Source of the DNA: Dehalococcoidia bacterium
Lineage (GTDB): Bacteria > Chloroflexota > Dehalococcoidia > Bin125
Reading direction: 5' to 3'
Length of the DNA stretch: 64,000 nucleotides
Assembly: GCA_965203165.1 (NCBI GenBank)
Contig: OZ241849.1
Span: 2,766,861-2,830,860 of the forward strand
Both the position numbers and the translations under genes were made by a program. Every line of letters begins with the position of its first letter. The first letter of the stretch is position 1. This document shows positions 10,033 to 50,195 of this stretch, piece after piece. The notes under the pieces are model-generated. The model had not been told where the DNA came from, ran no database searches, and saw nothing but the letters and a program-made list of their open reading frames with translations.

Positions 10033-10039
10033 AGGGACT

Positions 10040-10225
10040 GCTCAGCCCTTCGGTGCCTTTCCGAGGGGAAACCCCGGATGGAGAGTTAAACCCCGCCCTT
10101 CGGTGCTCGCCGACCACGGGATCAACCGGCCATTGCGGCCGACACCGCGCGACGCCCTGACGCACCCTACCGGCGGGCAACGGCAAACCATCCGACACCA
10201 TCGACGTGGCACCCTACGGCTGAGC
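10040..10225 (+). ncRNA. Candidate structured RNA (rod-like, 6S-like or long 5' leader of the NYN gene)
   Basis: Nested long-range complementarities: GCTCAGCC..GGTGCC (10040-10057) with GGCACC..GGCTGAGC (10208-10225); CGGATGG (10075-10081) with CCATCCG (10188-10194); CCCGCC (10092-10097) with GGCGGG (10172-10177). There is a local hairpin CGGCC-N5-GGCCG near 10127-10141. It starts at the predicted TSS. Confidence 0.3.
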
Positions 10226-10288
10226 AACGCTTCGATCTCATTACCTTCTCCCGGGTTGCGCTGTTGAGCGCGTGGTACCATCCGGCAG

Positions 10289-10969
10289 ATGACCCGCAGG
10301 GCGATCGTCTACATTGACTACGAGAATGCGTACCGCAATGCCCGGGACTTCTTTCACAACGGCGATCCCGGGGACGACCGTACGAATGGGCACTTCAAAC
10401 CGCGCGCGCTTGCGGAGGTTCTCTGCGAGCGATACTCCGCGATGTTTCCTGCGCGCGAGTCATTGAACCTCGAAGCGGTTCGTGTCTTTCGAGGTCGTCC
10501 AGTACCACGGTATGAGGCCGCCGCGGCGTCCGCCTGGAGGCGACAAGCCGAGGCGTGGGAAGCCGAAGGCGTCTCGATAACACATATTCCGCTGCACTAC
10601 GATCCACAGGGCCGCGGTCGAGAGAAAGGCGTCGACATTCTGCTGGCGCTCCATCTCGTTATGGATGCGGTCGAGCGAAACTGCGATGCGGCCATCCTAT
10701 TCTCCAGAGACAGCGATTTCGAACCCGTTCCTGGAATGGTCGGTCGCCTCCCGGCGCCGCGCCCTGTCGTGTTGGCCGGCGGGTGGACATCCGGGCGCAG
10801 GCATTCGGCCTTTCCCACTCGCGAGCGACCGCTGTTAATCGGTCCAGCCGCATACCACGAGCGGTGCGCAGACACGACGGTCTATCTGACGCTGCATCAA
10901 GGCAAGCCGGCCACAAAGACGCAGAGGCGTCGTCGCAAGAGGCGGCGAGGCAAAAGATCGGCCGGCTGA
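10289..10969 (+). CDS. NYN (LabA-like) domain protein with basic C-terminal tail
   Basis: IVYIDYENAY, EKGVDILLALHLV and AILFSRDSDF motifs. The tail is KTQRRRRKRRRGKR. Confidence 0.7.
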   Translation: MTRRAIVYIDYENAYRNARDFFHNGDPGDDRTNGHFKPRALAEVLCERYSAMFPARESLNLEAVRVFRGRPVPRYEAAAASAWRRQAEAWEAEGVSITHIPLHYDPQGRGREKGVDILLALHLVMDAVERNCDAAILFSRDSDFEPVPGMVGRLPAPRPVVLAGGWTSGRRHSAFPTRERPLLIGPAAYHERCADTTVYLTLHQGKPATKTQRRRRKRRRGKRSAG

Positions 10970-11059
10970 GCGTGAAGCGGCAAGGCGTCGGCGTTTGCGA
11001 TCTCGCAACGTCTCGCCAGAGCCTGTTCACAATTCTCTCTCTCGTTGCCCTCGCGCAAC

Positions 11060-11632
11060 AGATCCACCACCCGCGCCCCCGTCCGTCATACCCGCGCTCC
11101 CGTCCGTCATACCCGCGCCCCGTCCGTCATACCCGCGCCCCCGTCCGTCATACCCGCGCTCGCCGCGGGTATCTCGCCGCAGTGCGCACAAAGCCCCACC
11201 CCTGCCCCCGCGCCCCGTCCGTCATACCCGCGCCCCGTCCGTCATACCCGCGCTCGCCGCGGGTATCTCGCCGCAGTGCGCACAAAGCCCCGCCCCTGCC
11301 CCCGCGCTCCCGTCCGTCATACCCGCGCCCCCGTCCGTCATACCCGCGCCCCGTCCGTCATACCCGCGCTCGCCGCGGGTATCTCGCCGCAGTGCGCACA
11401 AAGCCCCATCCCTGCCCCCGCGCCCCGTCCGTCATACCCGCGCCCCGTCCGTCATACCCGCGCTCGCCGCGGGTATCTCGCCGCAGTGCGCACAAAGCCC
11501 CACCCCCGCCCCCGCGCCCCCGTCCGTCATACCCGCGCTCGCCGCGGGTATCTCGCCGCAGTACGCACAAAGCCCCACCCCTGCCCCCGCGCCCCGTCCG
11601 TCATACCCGCGCTCGCCGCGGGCATGACGGAT
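11060..11632. repeat. Family-1 palindromic repeat array
   Basis: At least 6 full units of CCGTCATACCCGCGCTCGCCGCGGGTATCTCGCCGCAGTGCGCACAAAGCCCC, each preceded by 1-3 half-sites CGTCCGTCATACCCGCGC. Confidence 0.9.
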
Positions 11633-11676
11633 CTGCTTGCGGGGGTGGGGCGGGAGATGGGGGGGTGTGAATGGGC

Positions 11677-12825
11677 CTAGCGCCGCAGCGGCTGCATTCG
11701 CCGGTATGTCGCCACGCGCCAGAGCCACTCGAAGGGGCCGAAGCGGAAATACTTCAGCCAGACCGGGGACCAGAGCAGCTGCAGCGCCCAGACTGCCAGC
11801 ACGAAGCCCAGAATCGCGGTGCGGGTCAGGTCGGCGTCGCCAAGCAGCGAGCGCAGCACGATCACGCCGATGATTGTCTGCGTCAGGTAGTTGGTCAGCG
11901 CCATTCGGCCCGTCGACTGGAGCGCGTGGTGGATGCGCCGCTGACGGCGCATATTCCAGAGGATGACCAGCGCGATAATTCCCAGCGCGGCGGGAATCGT
12001 GCCGACCGTGTTGGGGATGCCGGTCAGCAGGGCGATTTTCGGATCGAAGTCGTAGATTGCGGCGATTGCGACGCCGAGCGCGGCCAGCGGCAGGCCGACG
12101 CCCAGGCCGTACAGCGCCATCCGGCGGTAGAACTGCGGCGGCTTCTCGCCGCTGAGCACACCCAGCCGGAACAGGGCGACGCCGATCAGCATCATGCCTA
12201 CCGCGCGCGCGAAGAAGTCGAAGATGAAGTAGAGGCCCACGCCGTCCGACGAATCGCCCTCGCTCAGCCAGAGCTCGCCCAGCTGCCGCCCATCCGCATC
12301 GACGCCGGTCTGCGCCGCCCCCGCCACGATCGGAATGATCAGCACCAGCGCGGCGCCCGTCGCCAGCAGCGCCTTGGGCGGCGCGTTGCGCGCGAGGATC
12401 AGAATCGGCGCGGCGACCGCGTAGATCACCAGCACATCGCCGTCCCAGAGCAGCATGTGCAGCACGCCGATGCCCAGCAGCAGCAGGTTCCGCCAGAAGC
12501 TCAGCCAGCCAGCGCTCTTGCCCTTGGCGGCGGCGCGATCCGCGAACAGCACGATCCCGGCCCCGAACAGGATCGAGAAGATGCCCATGAACTTCTGGTC
12601 GATGAAGATTTCGCCGAGGACGCCGATGGTCCAGTCGAGCCAGGTCTCGGTTCCGTCGGCGCTGAGGTTGAAGTAGGCGGCGGGGGGCAGGCCGTAGGAG
12701 ACCGCATTCATCAGCAGGATGCCGAGCACGGCCACGCCGCGCAGCATGTCGAGGTGCGTGATCCGCGCCGTCTCGGCGACCGGGCCGGAGTCCGGCGGCG
12801 GTTCGGAGGTTGTTGGCTCTGGCAT
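11677..12825 (-). CDS. DUF418 (YeiB-like) membrane protein
   Basis: RITHLDMLRGVAVLGILLMN...FSILFGAG N-terminus, multi-TM, and C-terminal GPFEWLWR motif typical of DUF418. Confidence 0.75.
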   Translation of the reverse strand: MPEPTTSEPPPDSGPVAETARITHLDMLRGVAVLGILLMNAVSYGLPPAAYFNLSADGTETWLDWTIGVLGEIFIDQKFMGIFSILFGAGIVLFADRAAAKGKSAGWLSFWRNLLLLGIGVLHMLLWDGDVLVIYAVAAPILILARNAPPKALLATGAALVLIIPIVAGAAQTGVDADGRQLGELWLSEGDSSDGVGLYFIFDFFARAVGMMLIGVALFRLGVLSGEKPPQFYRRMALYGLGVGLPLAALGVAIAAIYDFDPKIALLTGIPNTVGTIPAALGIIALVILWNMRRQRRIHHALQSTGRMALTNYLTQTIIGVIVLRSLLGDADLTRTAILGFVLAVWALQLLWSPVWLKYFRFGPFEWLWRVATYRRMQPLRR

Positions 12826-15944: not shown

Positions 15945-16025
15945 CTTGTTTCGCCCGCGCCTGTAACTCCTGCTCCACTCTCGGCCCTTCCTCTCCGGCT
16001 TCTTCCACCACCCCAGCGCAAATCG

Positions 16026-16825
16026 ATCCGTCATAGCGCGGGAGCAACTCCGTCATACCCGCGGGAGCAACTCCGTCATACCCGCGCACAACAATAGATC
16101 CGTCATACCCGCGCTTGCCGCGGGTATCTCGCCGCGGTGCGCACCAAGTCCGTTCCCGCCGCCCAACCCCCGCGCGCTCCCTTTCCGTCATACCCGCGGG
16201 AGCAACTCCGTCATACCCGCGCACAACATTAGATCCGTCATACCCGCGCTTGCCGCGGGTATCTCGCCGCGGTGCGCACCAAGTCCGTTCCCGCCGCCCA
16301 ACCCCCGCGCGCTCCCTTTCCGTCATACCCGCGCTTGCCGCGGGTATCTCGCCGCGGTGCGCACCAAGTCCGTTCCCGCCGCCCAACCCCCGCGCGCTCC
16401 CTTTCCGTCATACCCGCGCTTGCCGCGGGTATCTCGCCGCGGTGCGCACCAAGTCCGTTCCCGCCGCCCAACCCCCACGCGCTCCCTTTCCGTCATACCC
16501 GCGCTTGCCGCGGGTATCTCGCCGCGGTGCGCACCAAGTCCGTTCCCGCCGCCCAACCCCCGCGCGCTCCCTTTCCGTCATACCCGCGCTTGCCGCGGGT
16601 ATCTCGCCGCGGTGCGCACCAAGTCCGTTCCCGCCGCCCAACCCGCGCGCTCCCTTTCCGTCATACCCCGCACAACATTAGATCCGTCATACCCGCGCTT
16701 GCCGCGGGTATCTCGCCGCGGTGCGCACCAAGTCCGTTCCCGCCGCCCAACCCCCGCGCGCTCCCTTTCCGTCATACCCGCGGGAGCAACTCCGTCATAC
16801 CCGCGCTTGCCGCAGGTATGACGGA
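16026..16825. repeat. Family-1 palindromic repeat array including a regular 85-bp tandem block
   Basis: CCGTCATACCCGCGCTTGCCGCGGGT starts at 16235, 16320, 16405, 16490 and 16575, an exact 85-bp period. Further copies lie near 16100 and 16684, with a degenerate reverse copy at 16803-16825. Confidence 0.95.
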
Positions 16826-16850
16826 TTTTGCGCGAACAGCCGCCCCTCCC

Positions 16851-23788: not shown

Positions 23789-24148
23789 CTTTCGCGATAG
23801 CGACACTCCGCTATCCACCCGTTGATCGTATCCGGCGCTCGCTGTCTTGCCAAGAGGCGCGGCCACGGCTGCCGAATACTGAAAGCGCCGGTAGCCGCTT
23901 GGGCACCGGCGCCGATGGCGAAAGTTCACCATCCACTGAAGCGATCATAGCCCGCACCGCCAGGTGCGTTCACGCTTAGCGCGACTCCGCTGCCCCTGCG
24001 CCCTCACACCCGCGCACACCCCTCCTCCCTCCCCGCCTCACCTCTCCCGTCACACCCGCGCGCGCCCCTCTCCCGTCACACCCGCGCCCTGCCTCTCCCG
24101 TCATACCCGCGCGCCGCCTCTCCCATCACACCCGCGCGCCCCCCTCTC

Positions 24149-24336
24149 CCGTCATACCCGCGCTCGCCGCGGGTATCTCGCCGAGTTCTGCACGGAGCCC
24201 CGAGCGCGCCACCCCACATGTTCCGGTGGCGCTCAGACGCCACTTGAGCTGGTGTGACGAGCGGGGGTGCGGGAGGCGGGGACACTACTTGGTGCTCGCC
24301 GCGGCGAGATACCCGCGGCGAGCGCGGGTATGACAG
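24149..24336. mobile_element. MITE-like unit of family 1 (inverted terminal hairpin copies), preceded by half-site iterations from about 24003
   Basis: Left end is CCGTCATACCCGCGCTCGCCGCGGGTATCTCGCCG. Right end is CGGCGAGATACCCGCGGCGAGCGCGGGTATGACAG. The interior resembles those of the 40214..40420 and 53548..53757 elements. Confidence 0.7.
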
Positions 24337-24401
24337 TAGAGGTGGGGCGTGGGTACGGCGGGTTTGTGGGCGGTGGGGTTTGAGGCTTGCGAAAGCAAGC
24401 C

Positions 24402-27671: not shown

Positions 27672-27749
27672 TTACCGCTCGTCGTAGGTTTCGAAATAGC
27701 GGGTTTTGACGGCCTTTTGGTTTTCGTAGATCGAGCCCTGACTGGGGGC
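27672..27749 (-). pseudogene. Orphan 3'-end fragment of a phyH-like gene (duplicate of 29154..29231)
   Basis: Encodes ..APSQGSIYENQKAVKTRYFETYDER*, versus ..APSQGSIYENQKAVKNRYFETYEDQ* at the end of CDS 29154..30074. I count 64/78 identical nucleotides. Confidence 0.8.
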
Positions 27750-29153: not shown

Positions 29154-30074
29154 CTATTGATCCTCGTACGTCTCGAAGTAGCGGTTCTTCACTGCCTTCT
29201 GGTTTTCGTAGATCGAGCCCTGGCTGGGGGCTGGGGGGAGCGGGAGGTAGGGCGGGACTGCGGTTTGGCGGGGCTGCTCTACGTCTTCGCCGGCGCAGAG
29301 CAGGCCCTGGTAGTAGTCGAGGCTCATTTTGCCCAGGCCCTGGATGGGCCAGGCGTCGGCGGCGGCGTAGCCGAAGAGCAGCAGGCGGCGCGGGTTCTCG
29401 GAGCGGTTGAGCGCCGAGCCGTGCATCATCCGCACGTGGTGGAAGGAGACGGAGCCGGCCGGGCCCTCGAGGGCGACCGTGTCGCGCTCCATATCCCAGT
29501 CGAACTCGCTGGGCTCCACCGCGCCGGTGAAATAGCGGCCCTCGGGGTGGTGGTGGTCGTAAATCTTGCCCTTGTGCGAGCCGGGCACGACCAGCAGCGG
29601 GCCGTTCTGCTCGTAGCAGTCGTCGAGCAGGATGCCGGCGGCGAGCAGGTCGTCGTTGGTGTGGGGGTAGAAGGGCCAGTCCTGGTGCCACTCGACGGGC
29701 GCGCCGTACTGCGCCTCTTTCATGTTGAGCTTGTCGTTCTGCAGCCGCACATTGGGACCGATCAGGGCGGAGACGACTTCCATCAGGACGGGGTGCTGGG
29801 CGAGCTCGCGGAAGAAGGGCCAGTGGGCGTGGGGCGACTTGAGCCGCCGCACGCGGGGGTCGTCGGGCGTGTGCGAGTCCTCGAGGTCGTAGCGCGCGTC
29901 GTGGTCGGTCAGGCCGGCGGCCTCGGCGACGATCCGGTCGGTCTCGTCGCGCAGCGCTTGCAGCGTGTCGTCGGGCAGCAGGCTGGGGATCAGCAGGTAG
30001 CCGTTCTCGTGGTAGAACTCAACCTGCTCGGGGGTAACGAGCGGTTTGACGGCGGTGGCGGTCGTCGTGGTCAT
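29154..30074 (-). CDS. Phytanoyl-CoA dioxygenase (PhyH) family Fe(II)/2OG oxygenase
   Basis: TPEQVEFYHENGYLLIPSLL, VEWHQDWPFYPH and SVSFHHVRMMHGS motifs. Confidence 0.85.
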   Translation of the reverse strand: MTTTTATAVKPLVTPEQVEFYHENGYLLIPSLLPDDTLQALRDETDRIVAEAAGLTDHDARYDLEDSHTPDDPRVRRLKSPHAHWPFFRELAQHPVLMEVVSALIGPNVRLQNDKLNMKEAQYGAPVEWHQDWPFYPHTNDDLLAAGILLDDCYEQNGPLLVVPGSHKGKIYDHHHPEGRYFTGAVEPSEFDWDMERDTVALEGPAGSVSFHHVRMMHGSALNRSENPRRLLLFGYAAADAWPIQGLGKMSLDYYQGLLCAGEDVEQPRQTAVPPYLPLPPAPSQGSIYENQKAVKNRYFETYEDQ

Positions 30075-30153: not shown

Positions 30154-31797
30154 GTGACCAAGCCAGTCTATGAGCATGCAATTCGCTGGGAGTCGCGCCG
30201 TTCGCCGGTGCTCTCGACGCGCGGCGCGGTGGCGGCGAGCCAGCCGCTGGCGACGCTGGCCGGGGTGCGGATGCTGCAGGCGGGCGGCAACGCGGCCGAC
30301 GCGGCGGTGGCCGCGGCCGCGGCGCTGGCGGTGGTCGAGCCCAACTCGACGGGGATCGGCGGCGACTGCTTCTGCCTCTTCTACCGCGTTTCGGACGGGG
30401 CGGTGGAGGCGATCAACGGGAGTGGGCGCAGCCCGGCCGCGCTGACACTGGAGCGAGCGGGCGGCGCGGAGGGTTTCGAGCGGCAGGGCGCGCACGCGGT
30501 GACCGCGCCGGGCACGATCGCCGGCTGGTCGGACACGCTGAGCCGCTTCGGGCGGATGACGCTCACCGAGGCACTCGGGCCGGCGATCGAGCTGGCCGAG
30601 CAGGGCTTCCCGGTCACGCCGGTGATCAGCCGCGGCTGGGCGAGCCAGGAGCAGCTGCTGCGCGAAAAGGGGCCGGCGGGCGGCGATCTGCTGCTCGGCG
30701 AGCGCGCGCCGCGCGCGGGCGAGGTGTGGCGCAATCCGCGCATCGCGCGGGTGCTGCGCGCCGTCGCCGAAGGCGGTCCCGACGCCTTCTACCGGGGCGC
30801 GCCGGCGCGGGCGATCGTCGAGGCGCTGGAGCTGCACGGCGGCTGCATGACGTTGGACGATCTGGCCGCGCACTGCTCGACATTCGAGCCGCCGCTCTCG
30901 ACGACCTACCGCGGCCACACGGTCTACGAGTGCCCGCCCAACGGCCAGGGAATCACGGCGCTGATCGCGCTGAACATCCTCGAGGGGATTGACATCGCGG
31001 GGACGGCGCCGCGCACGGTCGAGGCGCTGCATCCGACGATCGAGGCGATTCGGCTGGCGTTCGCCGACGCGCGGGCTTACGTGGCCGATCCGGCGCGCGC
31101 CGCGGTGCCGGTCGAGGGGCTGCTGAGCAAGGCCTACGCGGCGGAGCGGCGCGGGTTAATCCAGTCGGACGCGGCGATCGATCTGGCAAGGGCCGGGCAG
31201 CCGTCCGCTCTGCCCGGCGGGTCGGACACGGTCTATCTCTGCGCGGTCGACGGCGAGGGCAACGCCTGCTCGTTCATCAACAGCAACTACGAGGGCTTCG
31301 GCAGCTGCATCGTGCCCCGCGATTGCGGCTTCAGCTTGCAAAACCGCGGCGCGGGCTTCGCGCTGGAGCCGGGCCACCCCAACGCGCTGGAGGGCGGCAA
31401 GCGGCCCTATCACACGATCATGCCGGCGATGCTGACGCGGCCCGACGGCTCGCTGTTCGCCGCGTTCGGGGTGATGGGCGGCTGGAATCAGCCGCAGGGG
31501 CACACGCAGGTCGCGATCAATCTGATCGATCGGGGGATGGATCCGCAGGCGGCGATCGACGAGCCGCGCTTTTCGATCCAGACCGACCCACCCAACGGCG
31601 ACATCTGGGTTGAGGACGGCATCCCGGTAGAGGTGATCAGCGCGCTGGCGCAGCTGGGGCATCCGGTGCGGCCGGCGTCGGGCGCGCTGCGCAGCGGCGC
31701 GGTGGGCAAGGGGCAGATCATCGCGCGGGATCCGCAGACAGGCGTGCTCTGGGCGGGCTCGGACCCGCGCGCCGACGGCTGCGCAATCGGGCTGTAG
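30154..31797 (+). CDS. ggt: Gamma-glutamyltransferase
   Basis: AVAASQPLAT..GVRMLQAGGNAADAAVA, autoprocessing Thr context GGSDTVYLCAVD, and MGGWNQPQGH. Confidence 0.9.
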   Translation: MTKPVYEHAIRWESRRSPVLSTRGAVAASQPLATLAGVRMLQAGGNAADAAVAAAAALAVVEPNSTGIGGDCFCLFYRVSDGAVEAINGSGRSPAALTLERAGGAEGFERQGAHAVTAPGTIAGWSDTLSRFGRMTLTEALGPAIELAEQGFPVTPVISRGWASQEQLLREKGPAGGDLLLGERAPRAGEVWRNPRIARVLRAVAEGGPDAFYRGAPARAIVEALELHGGCMTLDDLAAHCSTFEPPLSTTYRGHTVYECPPNGQGITALIALNILEGIDIAGTAPRTVEALHPTIEAIRLAFADARAYVADPARAAVPVEGLLSKAYAAERRGLIQSDAAIDLARAGQPSALPGGSDTVYLCAVDGEGNACSFINSNYEGFGSCIVPRDCGFSLQNRGAGFALEPGHPNALEGGKRPYHTIMPAMLTRPDGSLFAAFGVMGGWNQPQGHTQVAINLIDRGMDPQAAIDEPRFSIQTDPPNGDIWVEDGIPVEVISALAQLGHPVRPASGALRSGAVGKGQIIARDPQTGVLWAGSDPRADGCAIGL

Positions 31798-31810
31798 AAG
31801 GGCGAGCAAG

Positions 31811-32776
31811 TTGGCTAGCAGAATCGAACGCATTCGCGCGATCTGGCCCAATGAGGAACGCGACTTCACACCGTGGTTGGCCCAGAACCTGCGCGTACTG
31901 AGCGATGCCCTCGGTCTCCAACTCGAACGGCCGCGATGCGAGGTGCCAGTCGGCCTCTATTCGCTAGACGTGTTCGCGGTTGACGCTCTCAGCGACGATG
32001 CAGTGGCGATCGAGAACCAGATCGACGAGTCCAACCACAGCCACCTGGGTCAACTTCTCACGTATGCCTCGGGACTCGGCGCTCAAAAAGCGATCTGGAT
32101 CGCATCTGAGTTCTCGCCTGAGCATCTTCGCGCTCTAGACGATCTCAACCGGACAGCCTCCGATGGCCGCGAGTTCTTCGCAGTCGTCCTTGACGTCCCG
32201 GCACGCGCCACACCCAAGAACCCAGCGGTCAAGCTCACTGTCGTCTTGACTCCAGATCGGAAGAAGACTCCGCCCGGCAAGGCACCAGCTCGCAATCGCG
32301 GGGGCAAGTACGACCGATTCGCCCGAGATGTCGCGCCACTGTTGGGATCTCAGGGATTCACCCCAGCCAACTCTGCACGTGTTCCGGCCAAGGCTCACGC
32401 CTCCGAGCGCTTCTTCTTCGGCGGCTATCGCGATGATGCCGTCTCCTACAATCTGTCCGTCGAAGCTGGAGAGATTCGCGCCTATCTCTTCCACCACGGC
32501 GGACGCGCGTCGGAACGTCGCGCATTGCACGACCGCTTCAAGCGTGACGAGCTGCGCATCAAGGAAGCGCTTGCCAACGCAGGGCAGCAGAGTGGTTTTC
32601 GGATCAAGCACATCAACCCGCAAGGTATTTTCCGCTGGTTGATCGGAGTCAGTGTGCCGGGATCGATCGACACGCCCGCGGATGCTGAGGCGGCGCTCAA
32701 TTGGCTCACCAGCTCGATCCCCACCCTGCGGCGAGTCCTTGAGCCGCAGCTGCGCGAATTCCTCAACGGCGACTAA
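31811..32776 (+). CDS. PD-(D/E)xK-like nuclease N-domain plus DUF4268-like C-domain protein
   Basis: E.DFTPWLAQNL..L...LGL.L......V.VG.YSLDVFA.D...DDAVAIENQIDESNHSHLGQLLTYASGL.AQKAIWIA is the pattern typical of this family. Confidence 0.55.
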   Translation: MASRIERIRAIWPNEERDFTPWLAQNLRVLSDALGLQLERPRCEVPVGLYSLDVFAVDALSDDAVAIENQIDESNHSHLGQLLTYASGLGAQKAIWIASEFSPEHLRALDDLNRTASDGREFFAVVLDVPARATPKNPAVKLTVVLTPDRKKTPPGKAPARNRGGKYDRFARDVAPLLGSQGFTPANSARVPAKAHASERFFFGGYRDDAVSYNLSVEAGEIRAYLFHHGGRASERRALHDRFKRDELRIKEALANAGQQSGFRIKHINPQGIFRWLIGVSVPGSIDTPADAEAALNWLTSSIPTLRRVLEPQLREFLNGD

Positions 32777-32780
32777 TCCG

Positions 32781-32905
32781 CGGCATCCAGTCCGCTGCGC
32801 AGCGGCGCGGTGGGGAAAGGGCAGATCATCGCGCGAGATCCGCAGACGGGCGTGCTCTGGGCGGGCTCAGACCCACGCGCCGACGGCTGCGCGATCGGGC
32901 TGTAG
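32781..32905 (+). pseudogene. Orphan 3'-end fragment of ggt (duplicate of 31687..31797)
   Basis: 32795..32905 differs from 31687..31797 at 7 of 111 nt. All 7 are synonymous, and both encode LRSGAVGKGQIIARDPQTGVLWAGSDPRADGCAIGL*. Confidence 0.9.
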
Positions 32906-32939
32906 GCTGACCCAAGGCGAACGACGGCGGAGGCCGGCG

Positions 32940-33146
32940 ATGAGGCGAACATTCACAGCGAGCGTGGCGCAAGAGGGCGAGTGGTACGTCGCGCAGGCCC
33001 TGGAAGTCGATGTCGCGAGCCAGGGGGAGTCGGTGGATGAGGCGCTGGCGAACCTGCGCGAGGCGATTGAGCTCTACTTCGAGCCGCCGCGGGCGACCGA
33101 CGCCCCTGAGTTGCACCAGATCGAGGTAGAGGTTGCCGCCGGCTAG
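32940..33146 (+). CDS. HicB-like (UPF0150) antitoxin-fold small protein, no adjacent HicA
   Basis: FTASVAQEGEWYVAQALEVDVASQGESVDEALANLREAIELYFE. ATG 32940 follows GGAGG. Confidence 0.6.
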   Translation: MRRTFTASVAQEGEWYVAQALEVDVASQGESVDEALANLREAIELYFEPPRATDAPELHQIEVEVAAG

Positions 33147-33160
33147 GGCGCTTTTCTTTT

Positions 33161-33263
33161 CAGATGGACGGGGTGAAACCTTTCAATTGGACGGTGGGTA
33201 AGTTTTCAAATGGACGTCGGTCAACCTTTCAATTGGACGGGGTTGGGTTTACGATTGGACGAT
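33161..33263 (+). repeat. Five iteron-like direct repeats (22-23 bp period) abutting the AAA ATPase start codon
   Basis: CAGATGGACGGG at 33161, CAATTGGACGGT at 33184, CAAATGGACGTC at 33206, CAATTGGACGGG at 33229 and CGATTGGACGAT at 33252. The last contains ATG 33262. Confidence 0.85.
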
Positions 33264-34596
33264 GGCCGACGCCGCGCTCTACCCCCGCTACGCCGAACTG
33301 CGCCTGGCCGAGGCGCTGGAGGAGTCGCCGATTGTGCTGATCCAGGGGCCGCGGCAGTGCGGCAAGACCACGCTGGCGCAGATCGTGGGCTCGCCGCGCG
33401 GCCTGACGGCGGGTGCGAACCCTCCCGCGGGGGAGGGCGCCTATTCCTACGTGACCTTCGACGACGACATCGCGCGCAGCGGCGCGGAGACCGACCCGAT
33501 GGGATTCATCGCGGGCCTGCCGGAACGCGCGGCACTGGACGAGGTGCAGCGCGTGCCGGGCATCTTCACCGCGCTGAAGCTGGCGGTGGACCGCGACCGC
33601 AGGCCAGGGCGCTTCCTGCTGACCGGCTCGACCAACGTGCTGCAGACGCCGAACTTGGCGGACTCGCTCGCCGGGCGGATGGAGACCGTGCGGTTGCACC
33701 CGCTGGCGCAGTGCGAGCTCGCCGATCGTTCCGATCGTCCTGAGGCGCGGCTGGAGGACGGGCGCTTCATCGGCTTCCTCGATGCGCTGTTCGAGGGCGG
33801 CTTCGAGACGCGGCGCAGCGAACCGCTGGGCGCGGAGTTGCACGAGCGGATCGTCGACGGCGGCTATCCGGCGGCGCTGGCGCGGCGCGCGGGGCGGCGG
33901 CGCGCGGTCTGGTACCGCGACTACGTGGAGGCGCAGATGCAGCGCGATGTGCGCGATATGTCGCGGATTCGGACGCTCGAAGCGCTGCCCCGGCTGATGC
34001 GTCTGGCGGCGGTGCAGACGGCGACGCTGCTCAACGTCTCGGATCTGGCGCGCTCGTTCGAGCTCAGTCTGCCGACCGTGCGCAGCTATCTCGAGCTGCT
34101 GGAGCGGGTCTTTCTGCTCGAGCGGCTGCCGCCCTGGCACAGCAACCGGCTGAGTCGGCTGATTAAGACGCCGAAGCTGCACATCGGCGACACGGGGCTG
34201 GCCTGCGCGCTGATGGGGCTCAACGCGGCCGGGCTGGCGCGCGACCCGCAGCGGCGCGGCGCGCTGCTCGAGACGTTCGTCTTTCAGGAGCTGCGCCGCC
34301 AGGCCGCCTGGTACGACGCGCCGCTCGATTTCTTCCACTTCCGCGACAAGGACAAGGCGGAGGTGGACATCGTGATCGAGCGGGGCGGGATCCAAGTGGC
34401 GGGCGTGGAGGTCAAGGCGGCGAGCACGGTTTCGGAGGGCGATTTCCGCGGCCTGCGTCGGCTGCGCGAGGCGAGCGGCGCGCAGTTCGCCGCCGGCGTG
34501 GTGCTGCACGACGGTGAGATCTCGACGAGCTTCGGCGACGGTCTCTACGCGGTGCCCATTCGGATGCTGTGGGAGGCGGCGGGGATTGAGCGCTGA
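33262..34596 (+). CDS. AAA-family ATPase with DUF4143 C-terminal domain
   Basis: Walker A GPRQCGKTT. AAA_14-like LDEVQRVP. C-terminal YFRDKDKAEVDIVIE is the pattern of the DUF4143 (PD-(D/E)xK-like) family. Confidence 0.75.
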   Translation: MADAALYPRYAELRLAEALEESPIVLIQGPRQCGKTTLAQIVGSPRGLTAGANPPAGEGAYSYVTFDDDIARSGAETDPMGFIAGLPERAALDEVQRVPGIFTALKLAVDRDRRPGRFLLTGSTNVLQTPNLADSLAGRMETVRLHPLAQCELADRSDRPEARLEDGRFIGFLDALFEGGFETRRSEPLGAELHERIVDGGYPAALARRAGRRRAVWYRDYVEAQMQRDVRDMSRIRTLEALPRLMRLAAVQTATLLNVSDLARSFELSLPTVRSYLELLERVFLLERLPPWHSNRLSRLIKTPKLHIGDTGLACALMGLNAAGLARDPQRRGALLETFVFQELRRQAAWYDAPLDFFHFRDKDKAEVDIVIERGGIQVAGVEVKAASTVSEGDFRGLRRLREASGAQFAAGVVLHDGEISTSFGDGLYAVPIRMLWEAAGIER

Positions 34597-34653: not shown

Positions 34654-35427
34654 CTACGCGGCTGCGCCCGCCAGCCGCGGGATGTCGTCGGAAGCGCGCT
34701 CCCGGAAGTCGTTCAACGCGGGGTATTGGCGGTCCGCGTTCCGCATCAGCATGAGCGTCTCTTTCGAACCCAGCTCCTCGATGTCCTCGTGGATGACCAG
34801 GCTGATGAACGGCAGGCCAGCCTTTTGAAATTCCAGCAGCGCGATGGTGACGTTCTTGGCTTTGTCGTTGCCTCGCACGCCGAAGACGTAGAAGTCTCTG
34901 TCGTTATGCGTCAGTTGCCAGTCGACGCTGATCGGATAGTCGGGCAGCGGAGCGACATCCTGCGTCGGGCTGAACACGGCGAGATCGCCTTGAACGTACT
35001 CGGTGAGATCGTCGTAGAACGCGCTGCGCACCACTTCCCGACTCCAATAGCTCATACTCGACACTTTCTGCACGCAGCTGGCGAACTGGAGGATGCTCGC
35101 GTAGAGCGAGTCGATGGGCGCATCGAGGTAGAGGTTGCCATTGTCGTTCTGGACGCCGCTGTTAATCAGGATGCTCTCGAGGATGCCGCGGCGGGTCGGA
35201 GAATTGATCTCGAAGCTGTACGAGAGGCGCATCAAGGCCATCCCGAAATCGCAGATGCGGACCTGCTCAGTGCCGCGCGGGCTCTGCTGCAAGTAGATGT
35301 CCACCATGTCACCGTCTTCGTGCGAGATCGGCGCAATGAGTTGGAGAGCGCCCGGCCGACGCTCGTAGAGGTCGAAACCGCTGTTGAGCGATTCACGGAG
35401 CGCTGCCCTGATCGCGTCATTGTTCAT
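34654..35427 (-). CDS. DUF1828/DUF1829-like protein
   Basis: 257 aa in a lower-GC segment next to the tRNA. N-terminal ..HEDGDMVDIYL... and C-terminal pattern recalled from DUF1828/1829 proteins. Low certainty. Confidence 0.4.
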   Translation of the reverse strand: MNNDAIRAALRESLNSGFDLYERRPGALQLIAPISHEDGDMVDIYLQQSPRGTEQVRICDFGMALMRLSYSFEINSPTRRGILESILINSGVQNDNGNLYLDAPIDSLYASILQFASCVQKVSSMSYWSREVVRSAFYDDLTEYVQGDLAVFSPTQDVAPLPDYPISVDWQLTHNDRDFYVFGVRGNDKAKNVTIALLEFQKAGLPFISLVIHEDIEELGSKETLMLMRNADRQYPALNDFRERASDDIPRLAGAAA

Positions 35428-35635: not shown

Positions 35636-35711
35636 TGGTGGAGCTGGGGGGACTCGAACCCCCGGCCTTTTGACTGCCAGTCAAACGCTCTCCCAACTGA
35701 GCTACAGCCCC
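35636..35711 (-). tRNA. tRNA-Ala (anticodon GGC)
   Basis: Reverse complement GGGGCTGTAGCTCAGTTGGGAGAGCGTTTGACTGGCAGTCAAAAGGCCGGGGGTTCGAGTCCCCCCAGCTCCACCA. Folds as a cloverleaf, has the G3:U70 alanine identity pair, anticodon loop CTGGCAG, and encoded CCA. Confidence 0.95.
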
Positions 35712-36894: not shown

Positions 36895-37303
36895 ACTCCC
36901 GCGCAAAAATTAGATCCGTCATACCCGCGCTCCCTCCACCACACCCGCGCTTGCTCTCTCGTCAAACCCGCGCTCGCTCTCTCGTCATACCCGCGCTCCC
37001 TCTCCCGTCATACCCGCGCTCCATCTCTCGTCAAACCCGCGCTTCCTCTCCCGTCATCCCCGCGCTCGCTCTCCCGTCATACCCGCGCTCCCTCCGCCGT
37101 CATCCCCGCGCTCGCTCTCCCGTCATACCCGCGCTCGCCGCGGGTATCTCGCCGCACTGAGCACCAAGCCCCACCCCCGCCTCCTCGCCCTCGCCAAGCA
37201 TCCCTCCCGCACCCCGCACAGACCTCCCACACACCTCCGTCGTTCCGCGCAGGGCTCCGTGCAGCACTCGGCGAGATGCCCGCGGCGAGCGCGGGTTTGG
37301 GGG
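36895..37303. repeat. Family-1 half-site iterations plus MITE-like inverted pair 37120..37303
   Basis: Half-sites CCGTCA(T/A)ACCCGCGCT recur about every 30 bp. A full hairpin lies at 37120-37150 and a degenerate reverse copy at 37270-37303. Confidence 0.85.
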
Positions 37304-40077: not shown

Positions 40078-40117
40078 CGCCGCCCTCCACGCCTCCGATG
40101 GTATCCCAGCTCGCAAC

Positions 40118-40447
40118 AACTCCGTCACACCCGCGCCCCCACCTCCGTCATACCCGCGCCTCCACCTCCGTCACACCCGCGCTCCACCTCCGCCATACCC
40201 GCGCGAGCAAGATCCGTCATACCCGCGCTCGCCGCGGGTATCTCGGCGAGTTCTGCACGGAGCCGCGCCTCCGCCGTTTCTGCGCGGACACTCGCGCCGC
40301 GCAACGTTCCGCCCCGGATGTCCGGCGGTGCTCGGATGGCGCTTGCTCAGAAGTGGCGGGCGGGGACGGTGCTTGGTGATCAGCGCGGCGAGATACCCGC
40401 GGCGAGCGCGGGTATGACGGATCTTGCTCTCGCGGGTATGGCGGCGG
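40118..40447. repeat. Family-1 repeats including complete MITE-like unit 40214..40420
   Basis: Left end CCGTCATACCCGCGCTCGCCGCGGGTATCTCGGCG. Right end CGGCGAGATACCCGCGGCGAGCGCGGGTATGACGG. 207 bp. Confidence 0.85.
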
Positions 40448-41815: not shown

Positions 41816-41884
41816 CGGCGGCTCTTTCGACCGTCGGGCATCATTGGGCAAGCTAGAGCTGGCGCGGGGTTGGCACAAGTGAGC

Positions 41885-41940
41885 GAAGCTCTGTGCTGTG
41901 CTCGGCGAGATACCCGCGGCGAGCGCGGGTATGACGGATC
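41885..41940. repeat. Single reverse-orientation family-1 hairpin unit
   Basis: ctcggcgagatacccgcggcgagcgcgggtatgacgg. Confidence 0.85.
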
Positions 41941-41953
41941 CGGGGCGCAGGCG

Positions 41954-43564
<1,611 letters not shown>

Positions 43565-45057: not shown

Positions 45058-45208
45058 GGTTGACGGTGGCAAGTTTTGGCAAGCGTTGGCGAGGCTGGGG
45101 TTGCCGGCGGGGAGGGCGGGTTGGCGTCGTTGCGGGGAGAGGGGCATGGTGATGGCACTCCTGTTCTGGTAAGTGTAGCAGGAGTTGGAGGAAGTGGGGG
45201 GTGTGCGG

Positions 45209-45357
45209 TGGTTCCTGCCTGCGCAGGAATGACGAGGGGGAGCGCAGGAATGACGGGAGGGGGCGCGGGGATGACGGAGGGGGCGCGGTTCCTGCCTGCG
45301 CAGGAATGACGAGAGGGGGTGCGCAGGAATGACGGTTGGGGGCGTGGGTATGACGGA
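45209..45357. repeat. Family-2 palindromic repeats (GGTTCCTGCCTGCGCAGGAATGACGG plus half-sites)
   Basis: Full hairpins lie near 45209 and 45287. Half-sites GCGCAGGAATGACGG / GCGCGGGGATGACGG lie between them. Confidence 0.9.
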
Positions 45358-45446: not shown

Positions 45447-47252
45447 TTGCCCGATCGGGGGGGGGGGGGGGATAAATTCCTCCCGATCGCCCTTGCGATC
45501 GCCGTCCTGCTGCTCGCTGCACTGACCCTCGCCCAGGCTGCTACACCCGGTTCTACTGGCCGCTATCTGGCGCTTGATGCTGGTGGCGAACACCAATGCA
45601 CATTGCGCGATGACGGGGTGATTCGCTGCTGGGGCGGCAACTCATCCGAGCTGCGCGATGTTCCCGACGGGCGCTACGCGGCGGTGAGTGCTGGGGCGTG
45701 GCACAACTGCGCGATTCGGAGGGAGAGCGGGGAGGTTGCCTGCTGGGGCAGCGACTCGAACGCGCCTGACGGCGCGTTCAGCGAGATCGCCGTGGGCTGG
45801 CAGTTCGCCTGCGGCGTGCGCGATACGGGTGAGCTCGAGTGCTGGGGGACCAGCAGCTACGGGCGCAGCGTGCTCGATTATGGGCAGGCGGAGCCGCCGG
45901 AGGGGGAATTCAGCGCGGTTAGCGCTGGCTTCCTCCACGCCTGCGGACTGCGGACAACGGGCGAGCTCGTCTGTTGGGGACGTGGCAGCCTTGGGCGGAC
46001 TGACGCGCCTGATGGCGTCTTCACGCAGGTGAGCTCGGGGACCACCCACTCCTGCGCGCTGCGTGAGGGTGGCGCGGTGGAGTGCTGGGGGCTGAACAAC
46101 TTTGGGCAACTCAACGCGCCATCGGGCGTCTTCGCGCAGGTTAGCGCGGGGGCGTGGCATTCGTGCGGACTGCGGGAGTCGGGCGCAATCGAGTGTTGGG
46201 GCGACGATCGCTACGGGCAGTCCAACGCCCCGTCGGGGCGCTATCTCGCTGTGAGCGCAGGAATGCGGCATTCGTGCGCCCTAAGCCGCACGGGCACGCG
46301 CTGTTGGGGCGGACAGGATGATCGCCTACCTGAGCTGGTTGCGGAGCTCGCGCCGACAACAGCTACCCGGACCGTCGCGGATACTTCGGACGAGGACGAG
46401 GGCGGCGCAACGCCCGAACCGTCCACGCCAACGCCAACTCCCACGCCCACTCCGACGCCGACCACGTTCACCGCAATCAGCGCGGGCGGTTTCCACACCT
46501 GCGCGCTGCGTAGCACGGGCACGATCGCCTGCTGGGGCATCGGCAGCAACAACCGACTCACCGCTCCGTCGGGCACGTTCACAGCAGTGAGCGCCGGCGC
46601 CTCGCACACGTGCGCGCTGCGCAGCAGCGGCGCGATCGCGTGCTGGGGTCTGAACACCAACAGCCGTACCACGCCGCCCTCAGGCAGCTTTACTACGCTT
46701 GGCAGCGGCCCCAGCGCGTCGCACACCTGCGCGGTGGCGAGCGGCGGCACGATTGAGTGTTGGGGTAGCGACGCCTCTGGCCAGGCTGACACCACCGCGC
46801 TGACGGGCACGTTCAGCGTTGTCAGCGGGGGTGGCGACCACAGCTGCGCGCTACGCAGCACCGGGGCGGTTCACTGCTGGGGAGCCGGTCAGACCGCCAC
46901 GCCGACGGGCACGTTCACCGCTGTCAGCGCCGGTGGCAGTCACACCTGCGGCTTGCGCAGCAGCGGGGCGGTCCACTGCTGGGGCGACAACGCTAACGGT
47001 CGGATCGACGCGCAGACGGGCACCTTCACCGCCGTCAGCGCCGGTGGCAGTCACACCTGCGGCTTGCGCAGCAGCGGGGCGATCGAGTGCTGGGGTCTGA
47101 ACACCAACAGCCAGACCACAGTCGCGGCGGGGACGTACACAGCGGTCGCGGCGGGACATCAGCACACCTGCGGGATTAAGACCGACGGGACGATCGCCTG
47201 TTGGGGCGACAACACCCACGGCCAGGCGCCGCCCGCGGGTGTGTCGCCGTGA
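45447..47252 (+). CDS. Secreted RCC1-repeat protein (two propeller blocks joined by a PT-rich linker)
   Basis: Signal-like KFLPIALAIAVLLLAALTLAQA. At least 12 repeats of H.C.LR..G...CWG.N..GQ. Linker PTPTPTPTPTPTT. Only a TTG start is available in the present frame (see the G15 tract). Confidence 0.75.
   Translation: MPDRGGGGDKFLPIALAIAVLLLAALTLAQAATPGSTGRYLALDAGGEHQCTLRDDGVIRCWGGNSSELRDVPDGRYAAVSAGAWHNCAIRRESGEVACWGSDSNAPDGAFSEIAVGWQFACGVRDTGELECWGTSSYGRSVLDYGQAEPPEGEFSAVSAGFLHACGLRTTGELVCWGRGSLGRTDAPDGVFTQVSSGTTHSCALREGGAVECWGLNNFGQLNAPSGVFAQVSAGAWHSCGLRESGAIECWGDDRYGQSNAPSGRYLAVSAGMRHSCALSRTGTRCWGGQDDRLPELVAELAPTTATRTVADTSDEDEGGATPEPSTPTPTPTPTPTPTTFTAISAGGFHTCALRSTGTIACWGIGSNNRLTAPSGTFTAVSAGASHTCALRSSGAIACWGLNTNSRTTPPSGSFTTLGSGPSASHTCAVASGGTIECWGSDASGQADTTALTGTFSVVSGGGDHSCALRSTGAVHCWGAGQTATPTGTFTAVSAGGSHTCGLRSSGAVHCWGDNANGRIDAQTGTFTAVSAGGSHTCGLRSSGAIECWGLNTNSQTTVAAGTYTAVAAGHQHTCGIKTDGTIACWGDNTHGQAPPAGVSP
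45457..45471 (+). repeat. G15 homopolymer in the first codons of the RCC1 gene
   Basis: 15 consecutive G residues counted at 45457-45471. Confidence 0.95.
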
Positions 47253-47255
47253 GCG

Positions 47256-47815
47256 GTTCCTGCCTGCGCAGGAATGACGGGGGAGGGCGCAGGAATGACG
47301 GGTGGAGGGGCGCAGGTTCCTGCCTGCGCAGGAATGACGGAGGGGGGGCGCGGGAATGACGGAGGGCGGGGGGTTGGTGGGGTGCGTGTTGGCGGCGTGG
47401 CGTGGGGTTGGTGCTGGTTCGTTGCCTCCCACCCCCCACCTAACCTCCCCCCTGGTAGGGGGGAGGGATGAATTGGGGAGGAGGTGAGGGGGTTGGGAGA
47501 TGTGTGAGGCGGGTGGGTTCCTGCCTGCGCAGGAATGACGGGGAGGGGCGCAGGTATGACGGAGGGGGGAAGCGCGGTGGGTTCCTGCCTGCGCAGGAAT
47601 GACGGGATGGGGGCGCGGGAATGACGGAGGGCGGGGGGTTGGTGGGGTGCGTGTTGGCGGCGTGGCGTGGGGTTGGTGCTGGTTCGTTGCCTCCCACCCC
47701 CCACCTAACCTCCCCCCTGGTAGGGGGGAGGGATGAATTGGGGAGGGGGAGGGAGCGGGAGATGTGTGAGGCGGGTGGGTTCCTGCCTACGCAGGAATGA
47801 CGGATAGGGGCGCAG
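47256..47815. repeat. Tandem ~262-265 bp unit (2 copies plus a partial) built from family-2 hairpins and a G/C-tract hairpin
   Basis: GGTTCC hairpins at 47255, 47315, 47516, 47580 and 47778. About 130 bp are identical at 47350-47480 and 47613-47745, including CCTCCCCCC-TGGTA-GGGGGGAGG at 47444-47466 and 47709-47731. Confidence 0.9.
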
Positions 47816-48861
47816 GCTTTAGGCTGTGGGGCGTGTCTGACGCGAACGGCCGCGGGGCGCTCCGCTATGGGGTGCTGCAATTCTTCTCCTGGCCGGGGCG
47901 GCGCGTGCCTTTGCCGACCGTCTACGAGCGGGCGTTGCAGCGGATCGATGTGATGGACGAGACGGGCTACGACTGCGTCTGGCTGGCCGAGCACCACTTC
48001 AACACCTACAGCGTCTGCCCCTCGGTGCATCTGATGGGCATGCACGTGGCGGGGCGCACGCAGAACATTCGGATCGGCACGGCGGTCACGCTGGCCTCGT
48101 TCTACCACCCGCTGCGGATCGCCGAGGAGGTGGCGCTGCTCGATGTGCTCTCGGGCGGGCGGGTCAATTGGGGCGCGGGGCGCGGCTTCGACCAGACCGA
48201 GTTTCGCGCGTTCGACGTGCCGGTCGAGGAGTCCTATCCGCGCTTCCGCGAGAGCGTGCAGATCGTGCTCGAGGCCTGGCGCAACGAGCGCGTGACCTGG
48301 CACGGCGACTACTACGATTTCGACGAGATCGAGGTGCTGCCCAAGCCGCAGCAGCAGCCGACGCCGCCCTTCTGGGTCGCCGCCGGCTCGGACGACGCGC
48401 TCGACTGGGCGGGCGAGCAGGGCTACTCGATCCTGATGGATCCGCACGCGGCGCACGCCGAGATCGGCGAGAAGCGGCGCCGCTACATCCGCGCGCTGGA
48501 GAATGCCGGTCACACGCTTGAGGGCCGCACGCTGCCGATGGCGCGGCTGATCGCCGTCGCCGAAACAGACGCCGAGGCCGAAGCGATCGCCCGCAACGGG
48601 GCGCAGTGGACGGTCGGCTCCTACGGCGCCGGCAGCAAGGTGCGGAAGGTCGGCGTCGCCCCGCGCGACGACGCCGGGCGCGGCGTGGATCCGGTGCAGC
48701 GCTACGTCGACGATGTCGTGATTCACGGCTCGGCGAGCAAAGTGGCGGACACGATCGCCGAGCTGCGCGAGACGATCGCGCTGGACTACCTGATCATCGC
48801 GCCCTTCTCGCACGACTCGTTCGTGCGCTTCACCAACGACGTGCTGCCCAGAATCGCCTGA
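47797..48861 (+). CDS. LLM-class (luciferase-like) flavin-dependent oxidoreductase
   Basis: YDCVWLAEHHF and RIGTAVTLASFYHPLRIAEEVALLDVLSGGRVNWGAGRG. ATG 47797 lies inside a repeat unit, so the true start may be GTG 47833. Confidence 0.8.
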   Translation: MTDRGAGFRLWGVSDANGRGALRYGVLQFFSWPGRRVPLPTVYERALQRIDVMDETGYDCVWLAEHHFNTYSVCPSVHLMGMHVAGRTQNIRIGTAVTLASFYHPLRIAEEVALLDVLSGGRVNWGAGRGFDQTEFRAFDVPVEESYPRFRESVQIVLEAWRNERVTWHGDYYDFDEIEVLPKPQQQPTPPFWVAAGSDDALDWAGEQGYSILMDPHAAHAEIGEKRRRYIRALENAGHTLEGRTLPMARLIAVAETDAEAEAIARNGAQWTVGSYGAGSKVRKVGVAPRDDAGRGVDPVQRYVDDVVIHGSASKVADTIAELRETIALDYLIIAPFSHDSFVRFTNDVLPRIA

Positions 48862-49959: not shown

Positions 49960-50195
49960 GGGCGGGGGTTGGGGAGGCGGGAACGGGCATGGTGCGCAGT
50001 GCGGCGAGATACCCGCGGCGAGCGCGGGTATGACGGGTCTCTTTTGCGCAGGTCTGGCGGGTCTTTTTTGCGCGGGTATGACGGAGGTGGTGGCGCGGGT
50101 ATGACGGAGGTGGTGGCGTGGGTGTGGCGGAGGTGGTGGCGTGGGTGTGACGGAGGTGTGGGTGCGGGTGTGGGGGAGGGGAGCGCAGGGGGGTG
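49960..50195. repeat. Family-1 repeats (reverse orientation hairpin plus half-sites)
   Basis: gcggcgagatacccgcggcgagcgcgggtatgacgg at about 50001-50036, followed by GCGCGGGTATGACGGAGGTGGTG iterations. Confidence 0.85.

Follow-up and report, generated by a model that had tools for sequence, protein, structure and literature searches.

A single gene placed between two copies of the 3' end of its upstream neighbor forms the subject of this study, which covers a 64,000-nucleotide stretch of a Dehalococcoidia bacterium genome (contig OZ241849.1, positions 2,766,861 to 2,830,860 of the forward strand; hereinafter the window). The upstream neighbor is ggt, coding for gamma-glutamyltranspeptidase, and the gene behind it, which we term the cargo, codes for a DUF4268-family protein. 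Among phenomena already described, "insertion with long target duplication" comes closest, and we hold with moderate confidence that the locus represents such an insertion, generated by a Campbell-type, homology-driven crossover and inherited from the ancestor of the genus. The ggt insertion is an old, inherited case and not the recent arrival of a mobile element. Its parts are the following, with positions counted from the first nucleotide of the window:

30154..31797, plus strand: ggt (gamma-glutamyltranspeptidase), the intact host gene (Pfam PF01019, E = 1e-142; G+C fraction at third codon positions, GC3, 0.92)
31685..31797, plus strand: proximal repeat (copy 1), the functional ggt 3' end, terminating at the ggt TAG stop (self-BLAST, codon analysis)
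31798..31810, plus strand: 13-nt spacer from the ggt stop to the cargo, purine-rich, with a Shine-Dalgarno-like AAGGGCGAG (relatives' sequences)
31811..32776, plus strand: cargo, a 321-aa DUF4268-family protein with an N-terminal NucS-like PD-(D/E)xK domain (PADLOC PDC-S11, AlphaFold2 model)
32783..32905, plus strand: distal repeat (copy 2), a ggt 3'-end relic without coding function, its TAG end aligned with the ggt stop
32783..32792 and 32793..32905, plus strand: decayed 5' edge and core of copy 2, respectively
32940..33146, plus strand: HicB-like DUF7387 gene (Pfam PF24113), the next gene past copy 2 in most relatives

In a self-BLAST comparison, 31685..31797 aligns to 32793..32905 with 106/113 nt identical (93.8%, E = 1.4e-42). 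A preliminary description of this DNA had reported that the last 111 nt of ggt (31687..31797) recur at 32795..32905 with seven differences, and this count is exact: all seven fall at codon position 3 and are synonymous, such that both copies translate to LRSGAVGKGQIIARDPQTGVLWAGSDPRADGCAIGL-stop (36 residues), and both stop exactly at TAG. The weaker similarity that had been traced to about 32781 is also present, starting at 32783; the synonymous-only pattern holds for the core and breaks down in this 5' edge (ASSPL versus ASGAL). The antisense open reading frame (ORF) at 32773..32952 shares its third codon positions with the ggt frame and is regarded as a high-GC shadow ORF, like others all along ggt. 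The spacer is similarly short in the relatives, whose sequences carry labels of the type L001: 13 nt in L001, L002, L003, L004 and L087, 12 nt in L084 and 15 nt in L085/L086. A scan for promoters and terminators detected neither kind of site in the interval from ggt to the cargo; hence, as far as the sequence can tell, the cargo is probably co-transcribed with ggt. A role of the repeat as a terminator or promoter was rejected, as the scan gave no such site.

The cargo frame is the only credible ORF between the two copies, as had been stated before, and begins with a TTG codon 13 nt past the ggt stop. Its product matches the PADLOC candidate defense family PDC-S11 over its full length (residues 7-314, E = 1.5e-53). 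Pfam returned no direct match, PF14088 included, even at E <= 1; however, PF14088/DUF4268 is present in most of the cargo homologues at 31-38% identity. An NCBIfam search gave no match, a PDB sequence search gave nothing significant (one match, E = 0.53), and exact-sequence look-ups of the window ggt and cargo proteins retrieved no record. In an AlphaFold2 model built on 71 sequences (mean pLDDT, the predicted local distance difference test score, of 85.7), the N-terminal domain recovers NucS/EndoMS as the top Foldseek matches (2vld, 5gke; probability 1.0, E about 1e-4, ~100 residues), with weaker matches to Hjc, SfsA and restriction enzymes. The invariant residues include D53, E68, N69, Q70 and H78; D53 and the E68-N69-Q70 triad, which gives ExQ instead of ExK, would be candidate catalytic residues. 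The model supports a NucS/EndoMS-like PD-(D/E)xK fold, and the cargo is a predicted nuclease, in keeping with the earlier characterization of the cargo as PD-(D/E)xK/DUF4268-like. Its placement in a candidate anti-phage family would imply a role in defense. No methyltransferase was detected in the cargo with Pfam or PADLOC, and it does not constitute a restriction-modification unit by these searches. With a GC3 of 0.70 versus 0.92 in ggt, the cargo appears as acquired DNA.

The arrangement of ggt, a 12-15-nt spacer, the cargo and the ggt 3'-end copy was recovered in seven assemblies, closed long-read chromosomes among them: the window, L004 (OZ241913.1, the same species as the window at ~97% nucleotide identity), L001, L002, L003, L084 and L087. 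Its recurrence in seven independent assemblies excludes an assembly artefact, which had been named as an alternative. L085/L086 have kept the cargo and lost both copy 2 and hicB. The identity matrices of ggt and of the cargo are congruent, giving the same three clades, with the cargo diverging about 2.5-5 times faster; this congruence indicates a single ancient insertion that predates the genus and has been vertically inherited. In the outgroup genus (L005-L018, ggt about 70% identical), phyH and ggt likewise form a divergent pair, the ggt 3' end occurs once and the cargo is absent. An ancient, fixed duplicated arrangement across the genus was the very observation that the preliminary description had set against its own account of the locus.

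The HicB-like gene is split from copy 2 by an extra insert in L001, internally deleted in L004 and absent in L085/L086; the deletion in L004 lies at about 10762-10772 of that sequence, where 165 nt corresponding to window 32927-33091 are missing. The ggt gene of L004 is itself frameshifted near codon 124 by a 1-nt deletion at about 8366-8372 (GCCGGCTGG to GCCGCTGG), reflecting either real pseudogenization or a long-read assembly error. The extra insert of L001 (9088-9566) separates copy 2 from hicB by an antitoxin gene of the RHH type and the remnant of a PIN toxin gene. These are followed by a third, 33-nt copy of the ggt end (9534-9566, one base inserted), which indicates serial accretion at one site. 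In L019, from another genus, 679 nt of the ggt 3' part are duplicated at 94% identity around a ~0.8-kb insert (8975-11431). The first ~170 nt of this insert recur past the second ggt copy, and it looks as though two alleles of the downstream gene have been stacked rather than one having replaced the other.

The duplication is not a general companion of DUF4268 genes: of three distant homologues, two (L088, L091) lack it and L090 has only a weak candidate. The latter is a 54-nt direct repeat (3997-4050 / 6051-6104, 85% identity) bracketing the DUF4268 homologue along with a DUF6226 gene, with one repeat copy overlapping the 3' end of an HTH_37 gene; going by its sequence, it may be another case of the same architecture. 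L091 (5001-8222) has three tandem DUF4268-domain genes directly behind a signal peptidase gene. A 72-nt direct repeat in L080 (6389-6460 / 7987-8058, 97% identity) involves the ggt 5' end together with the region in which an ORF 1.6 kb upstream begins, and may represent the equivalent of the ggt duplication at a 5' end. Other direct repeats in L010, L077-L080, L088, L040 and L059 were set aside as tandem paralogues or shared domains with a different architecture.

Had copy 2 merely drifted since the insertion, its divergence from copy 1 should be at least that seen between the ggt ends of different clades. Scored over 96 nt, the two copies differ within a genome by 0 (L001), 1 (L004), 3 (L002), 4 (L003), 5 (L084), 6 (L087) and 7 (window) nucleotides, as against 12-17/96 between the orthologous ggt ends of L001 and those of the other clades. 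Moreover, the two L001 copies, identical over the 96 nt, have a lineage-specific QT->KS change in common. These observations establish that the copies evolve in concert and, as they are homogenized genome by genome, that their present differences are younger than the insertion. The suggestion that the synonymous differences betray a second copy that evolved in another lineage and came with the insert is therefore not supported.

Copy 2 is not protein-constrained: it has a G->S change common to L084 and L087, its 5' edge is decayed, it has been deleted in L085/L086, and its frame is variable, being that of the cargo in the window and a different one in L002 and L003. Given this variation in frame, it is not translated as a cargo fusion, and readthrough or fusion was rejected on that ground. 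At sites 53, 68, 74, 80 and 98 of the 111, the same two alleles recur in either copy among different genomes, combined in mutually inconsistent ways. Window and L004 differ by about 5% in either copy, which is consistent with the ~3.4% across the whole region. We infer that the differences between the copies are mostly synonymous polymorphisms of functional ggt ends, shuffled by gene conversion and inter-strain recombination, with new mutations in the copy 2 relic being rare between conversion events. From time to time, gene conversion or crossover would replace copy 2 with the sequence of functional ggt ends, so that the differences present at any moment would mostly be variants already filtered by selection, i.e., synonymous ones; its edge would decay freely because conversion tracts seldom reach it.

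The second host gene with this architecture, as had been noticed before, is phyH, which is transcribed divergently from ggt:

29154..30074, minus strand: phyH (phytanoyl-CoA dioxygenase family), divergent from ggt (Pfam PF05721, E = 2.8e-39)
29154..29231, minus strand: phyH proximal repeat, with a native-like body and the last ~16 nt (YEDQ-stop tail) foreign relative to same-species L004
27805..29079, minus strand: cargo at the phyH site, a HEPN/Toprim protein of 424 aa from the ATG at 29079, in the same orientation as phyH (Pfam PF18871, E = 1.5e-23)
27672..27749, minus strand: phyH distal repeat, with a diverged left part and a YDER-stop tail

Here the last ~75 nt of phyH are duplicated around the HEPN/Toprim gene (27679..27749 versus 29161..29231, 86% identity, E = 3e-14 in self-BLAST). 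Read in frame, 27672..27749 encodes APSQGSIYENQKAVKTRYFETYDER-stop versus ...KNRYFETYEDQ-stop, with four amino-acid changes and aligned stops. The HEPN/Toprim protein itself is 72% identical in amino acids to its L085 homologue. The proximal copy is L004-like until the last ~16 nt (YEDQ-stop), while the tail of the distal copy (YDER-stop) is L004's own phyH tail at five diagnostic positions and its left part is diverged. A comparable pair of hybrids is found in L011, from another genus, whose full-length phyH is native on its left side and has the tail EDKQKS-stop, known otherwise from L008; its distal copy has the clade-consensus EDRKG-stop end and an L008-like left edge. L016, L017 and L010 provide clean empty sites for this insertion, and comparison with them defines a 976-nt insert consisting of a TIR-domain gene and one repeat. 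At both phyH sites, the two copies change between native and foreign sequence at corresponding positions, which lie close to the right edge of the repeat in the window and at its left edge in L011. This correspondence points to a single reciprocal crossover in which the chromosomal 3' end recombined with a circle bearing a diverged 3' end and the cargo. A foreign C-terminus on the host gene and a native one displaced downstream are present at the window phyH and in L011. The idea proposed for the ggt locus, namely insertion at the 3' end of a gene by an element that supplies a replacement end, or homology-driven capture, is upheld by the two phyH hybrids; the reading drawn from the synonymous differences at ggt is not supported.

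Campbell-type insertion-duplication is the homologous recombination of a circular DNA bearing a chromosomal fragment with the chromosome, and is exploited in the laboratory as insertion-duplication mutagenesis. It yields the topology seen here by a single reciprocal crossover: a 5'-truncated duplicate whose length is that of the homology carried, with the gene left intact only if the fragment reaches the stop codon. It is known mainly as a laboratory tool or a route of plasmid integration, and natural circles with a 3' end and a defense gene are not known to have been demonstrated. By this mechanism, a promoter-less single PDC-S11 gene would have been placed directly behind the ggt stop codon in the genus ancestor, through one crossover between the chromosomal ggt 3' end and a circular DNA with a ~120-nt ggt 3'-end segment beside the gene. 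The product would read, in order, intact ggt, cargo, 5'-truncated spare ggt 3' end and the old downstream DNA. As had been stated earlier for the insert, Pfam identified no integrase or transposase in any of the inserts, and no recombinase or transposase was found among the about 37 other window ORFs scanned. The repeats themselves range from 33 nt (the third copy of L001) through 65-85 nt and 98-121 nt to 679 nt (L019). This spread, the varying crossover sites and the absence of a recombinase from the ORFs scanned together favor host homologous recombination over a site-specific recombinase.

Insertion with long target duplication has been described for restriction-modification units (Nobusato et al. 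2000; Furuta, Abe & Kobayashi 2010, PMC2853133). In the latter study, direct repeats of 30-423 bp flank a defense unit devoid of mobility genes and are single-copy at empty sites; the repeats are similar though not identical to each other or to the target, and some overlap a gene 3' end. Cases were found in several phyla, and the mechanism was left open, with a "virus-like life cycle" being hypothesized (PMC2853133). The present cases likewise have repeats above 30 bp (113 nt at ggt, 71-78 nt at phyH), and the ggt insert is below 20 kb, with a single 321-aa ORF and no mobility genes. The empty site is clean for the TIR gene at the L011 phyH (L016, L017, L010) and available at the outgroup level only for ggt. 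They differ in that the cargoes are PDC-S11/DUF4268, HEPN/Toprim or TIR proteins rather than restriction-modification enzymes, for which reason we classify the ggt case as a variant of the phenomenon. Further, the target is a coding 3' end that extends precisely as far as the stop codon, cargo and host gene share one orientation (with the cargo 13 nt behind ggt), and reciprocal donor/recipient hybrid copies are visible. The ggt case also persists genus-wide with concerted evolution, and the phylum is Chloroflexota.

Several points weigh against a homology-driven crossover in the genus ancestor. A trans-acting recombinase could reside outside the 64-kb window, elsewhere in the ~3.4-Mb genome. 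The model also gives no account of how a first circle combining the 3' end and the cargo would form. The empty-site comparison foreseen in the preliminary description succeeded with the outgroup, which has a single ggt end and no cargo; within the genus no empty ggt site was found, and the hybrid-copy test is thus inapplicable to ggt itself. Two scans of JGI metagenomes, one for the empty-site junction and one for any ggt of the genus, returned zero hits and are uninformative, as the genus appears to be absent there. Finally, the changes private to copy 2 are still mostly synonymous, and conversion by copy 1 would explain these only if imports of functional alleles exceed new mutations.

Among the alternatives, a site-specific recombinase acting in trans survives best, although we consider it unlikely. 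It would make the cassettes comparable to integrase-less cis-mobilizable elements (CIMEs), with the ggt and phyH 3' ends as attachment sites and the integrase located elsewhere or on a lost helper element. The reciprocal phyH hybrids resemble attL/attR, the element-borne end restores the gene as in integrative elements aimed at gene 3' ends, the serial accretion of three ggt-end copies in L001 recalls tandem island arrays, and the hotspot is bounded by a tRNA-Ala gene. Integrative elements and CIMEs are similar also in having direct repeats derived from the 3' end of the target gene. Their attachment sites, however, are short and of fixed length, whereas the repeats here vary from 33 to 679 nt with no fixed crossover core, the two phyH cases differing in crossover position. 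Moreover, the ggt and phyH repeats have no obvious similarity by inspection (no motif search was run), variants at many positions are mixed between the two ggt copies, and the element, at about 1.1-1.5 kb with one gene, has no integrase in cis or among the window ORFs scanned. An integron cassette differs in the same respect, no IntI having been found among those ORFs, and in its flanking repeat, which is an imperfect palindrome and not host coding sequence. The tmRNA islands (PMC12595487) are not relevant, as those elements encode an integrase.

A portable homology arm is, in our estimate, improbable. Under this model, the unit of 3' end, cargo and spare 3' end spreads as linear DNA by a double crossover that requires nothing beyond the conserved host gene, with the gene body as the left arm and the spare copy as the right arm; at every transfer, the spare copy is renewed from the functional sequence of the recipient. 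It accounts for the mostly synonymous private changes of copy 2 and for the native tail on the distal copy, and the presence of the same cargoes without duplication in L018 and L085 implies that cargo alleles do circulate at the locus. However, the switch at the same position in both copies of the two hybrid cases is predicted by a single reciprocal exchange and not by two independent crossovers. The ggt cargo tree is congruent with that of ggt, with no inter-clade transfer visible, and the origin of the first duplication is not accounted for.

Nuclease-driven homing, in which unoccupied ggt or phyH ends would be cleaved by the cargo nuclease and acquire the cassette during repair, has its counterpart in fungal mitochondria. 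There, mobile endonuclease ORFs (mORFs) with C-terminal duplication occur at Allomyces atp6 and at Glomus atp6/atp9/cox2/nad3 (PMC3630166). The atp6, cox2 and nad3 hybrids have the same architecture as ours: a host gene with a foreign replacement C-terminus, a single ORF and the displaced native C-terminus, the native copy matching close relatives and the differences being largely synonymous (PMC3630166). The cargoes at ggt and at the window phyH are, in addition, predicted nucleases. The fungal mORFs are, however, LAGLIDADG or GIY-YIG homing endonucleases, often fused in frame, and their mobility is credited to the endonuclease. In contrast, the cargoes here are separate genes of several unrelated families with no indication of homing, and Pfam, NCBIfam and PDB searches detected no similarity of the ggt cargo to known homing endonuclease families (LAGLIDADG, GIY-YIG, other). 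We regard homing as very unlikely because one cargo, that of L011, is a TIR-domain protein and not a DNA endonuclease, and because the three distant DUF4268 homologues compared are not generally repeat-flanked; moreover, the ggt cargo is vertically inherited and fixed.

Derivation of copy 2 from a second ggt paralogue in tandem, of which deletion would have spared the last ~120 nt and between which and the first ggt the cargo would lie, is highly improbable, despite the age and fixation of the arrangement and the far longer (679 nt) partial second ggt of L019. In 7/7 genomes copy 2 starts at or within ~20 nt of the cargo stop codon, with nothing ggt-like further upstream of it; the clean pairs of empty and occupied sites show insertion and duplication to be a single event, and the outgroup has one ggt. 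The remnant of a whole second paralogue that had been envisaged earlier is, therefore, not what copy 2 represents. Finally, that copy 2 is functional as a protein, by readthrough or as a small ORF, and owes its synonymous-only divergence to that function is scarcely credible, for although all seven differences are synonymous and the window copy lies in the cargo frame past a single TAA, the relic displays the changes of frame, the G->S substitution, the decayed 5' edge and the deletion described above.

The region on either side of the phyH/ggt pair is variable among the relatives. The right-hand part contains the following:

33262..34596, plus strand: AAA_14/DUF4143 gene (PDC-S01; Pfam, PADLOC), a variable gene between ggt and tRNA-Ala
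34654..35427, minus strand: DUF1828 protein (PDC-M24B-like; Pfam, PADLOC), a variable gene between ggt and tRNA-Ala
35636..35711, minus strand: tRNA-Ala(GGC), the right boundary of the variable region

The content from ggt to the tRNA-Ala gene varies from about 0.6 to 3.8 kb among the relatives, and its PDC-S01 and PDC-M24B-like genes are, like the cargo, defense candidates. On the other side, the genes downstream of phyH are a HEPN/Toprim gene in the window and L085, a Type ISP restriction-modification enzyme in L004 and L084, an AAA_15+DUF3226 pair in L001 and L002, and other genes in L003. The cargo types across our cases (PDC-S11, HEPN/Toprim, TIR and Type ISP restriction-modification) are all of the defense type. 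The ADH-phyH-ggt-tRNA-Ala region thus resembles minimal mobile elements and core-gene-flanked defense hotspots in swapping defense cargoes between conserved flanks, with the difference that exchange through flanking homology alone creates no target duplication.

Several other features of the window were recorded. Upstream of the AAA_14/DUF4143 gene, at 33158-33261, TTTCA(A/G)(A/T)TGGACG boxes recur with an exact spacing of 23 nt (4 matched versus 0.04 expected in a pattern search), and a fifth, degenerate box abuts the ATG of that gene; the array is conserved in L002, L003 and L004 and, from its sequence, probably represents a series of operators. An intergenic repeat family of very high abundance with the hairpin core GTCATACCCGCGC..GCGGGTAT(CTCGCCGC) is found on both strands, often in arrays of 23-25-nt or 85-nt units, at 5480-8050, 11050-11710, 16010-16850, 23980-24360, 36910-37215, 40100-40445, 41870-41960, 45170-45340, 47220-47830 and 49970-50185. 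Similar units fill the intergenic DNA of the relatives, e.g., past hicB in L002, L003 and L084, and the family looks similar to repetitive extragenic palindromes and bacterial interspersed mosaic elements (REP/BIME-like). Two further arrays are a 111-nt periodic coding repeat at 45895-47230, with about 10 units each bearing CACxCCTGCGxxCTGCG...TGCTGGGG, and a tandem array of eight 57-nt units at 6535-7161.

A two-gene insert at 55544-57183 (PADLOC PDC-M02A, with DUF4365, and PDC-M02B; GC3 0.70-0.72) is located between ADH-like and acetyl-CoA hydrolase genes; its stop overlaps the start of the next gene, and self-BLAST revealed no flanking duplication. A gene at 52049-53491 on the minus strand codes for a fused N6/N4 DNA methyltransferase and Mrr-like restriction endonuclease. 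A 720-nt direct repeat (59157-59878 / 62010-62729, 85% identity) spans the upstream regions and 5' parts of two tandem FN3-domain genes, and was rejected as an instance of the cassette architecture as these are tandem paralogues.

How small defense genes devoid of mobility genes arrive between core genes is still poorly explained, and this locus gives unusually readable evidence of one route. The hybrid copies with one crossover point, the clean empty sites and the serial accretion point to a single homology-driven reciprocal crossover, with the 3' end of a host gene as the attachment site. Insertion with long target duplication is thereby extended beyond restriction-modification to other candidate defense genes and to the Chloroflexota. 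The locus also calls for caution in reading such sequences: where a gene and a neighboring fragment of it differ at synonymous sites only, the fragment need not have been functional elsewhere in recent times, as concerted evolution with a selected copy mimics this pattern. We tentatively raise the possibility, in which we place limited confidence, that single defense genes between duplicated host-gene 3' ends constitute a recombinase-free class of mobile cassette. Host homologous recombination across the repeats would excise a circle consisting of one repeat and the cargo. This circle, or a linear unit using the spare copy as a homology arm, would then re-insert behind the same gene in related genomes, preserving the host gene, borrowing its promoter and regenerating the repeats. 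If this were true, the "virus-like life cycle" that was put forward for restriction-modification units, though it has never been demonstrated, would extend to defense genes generally.

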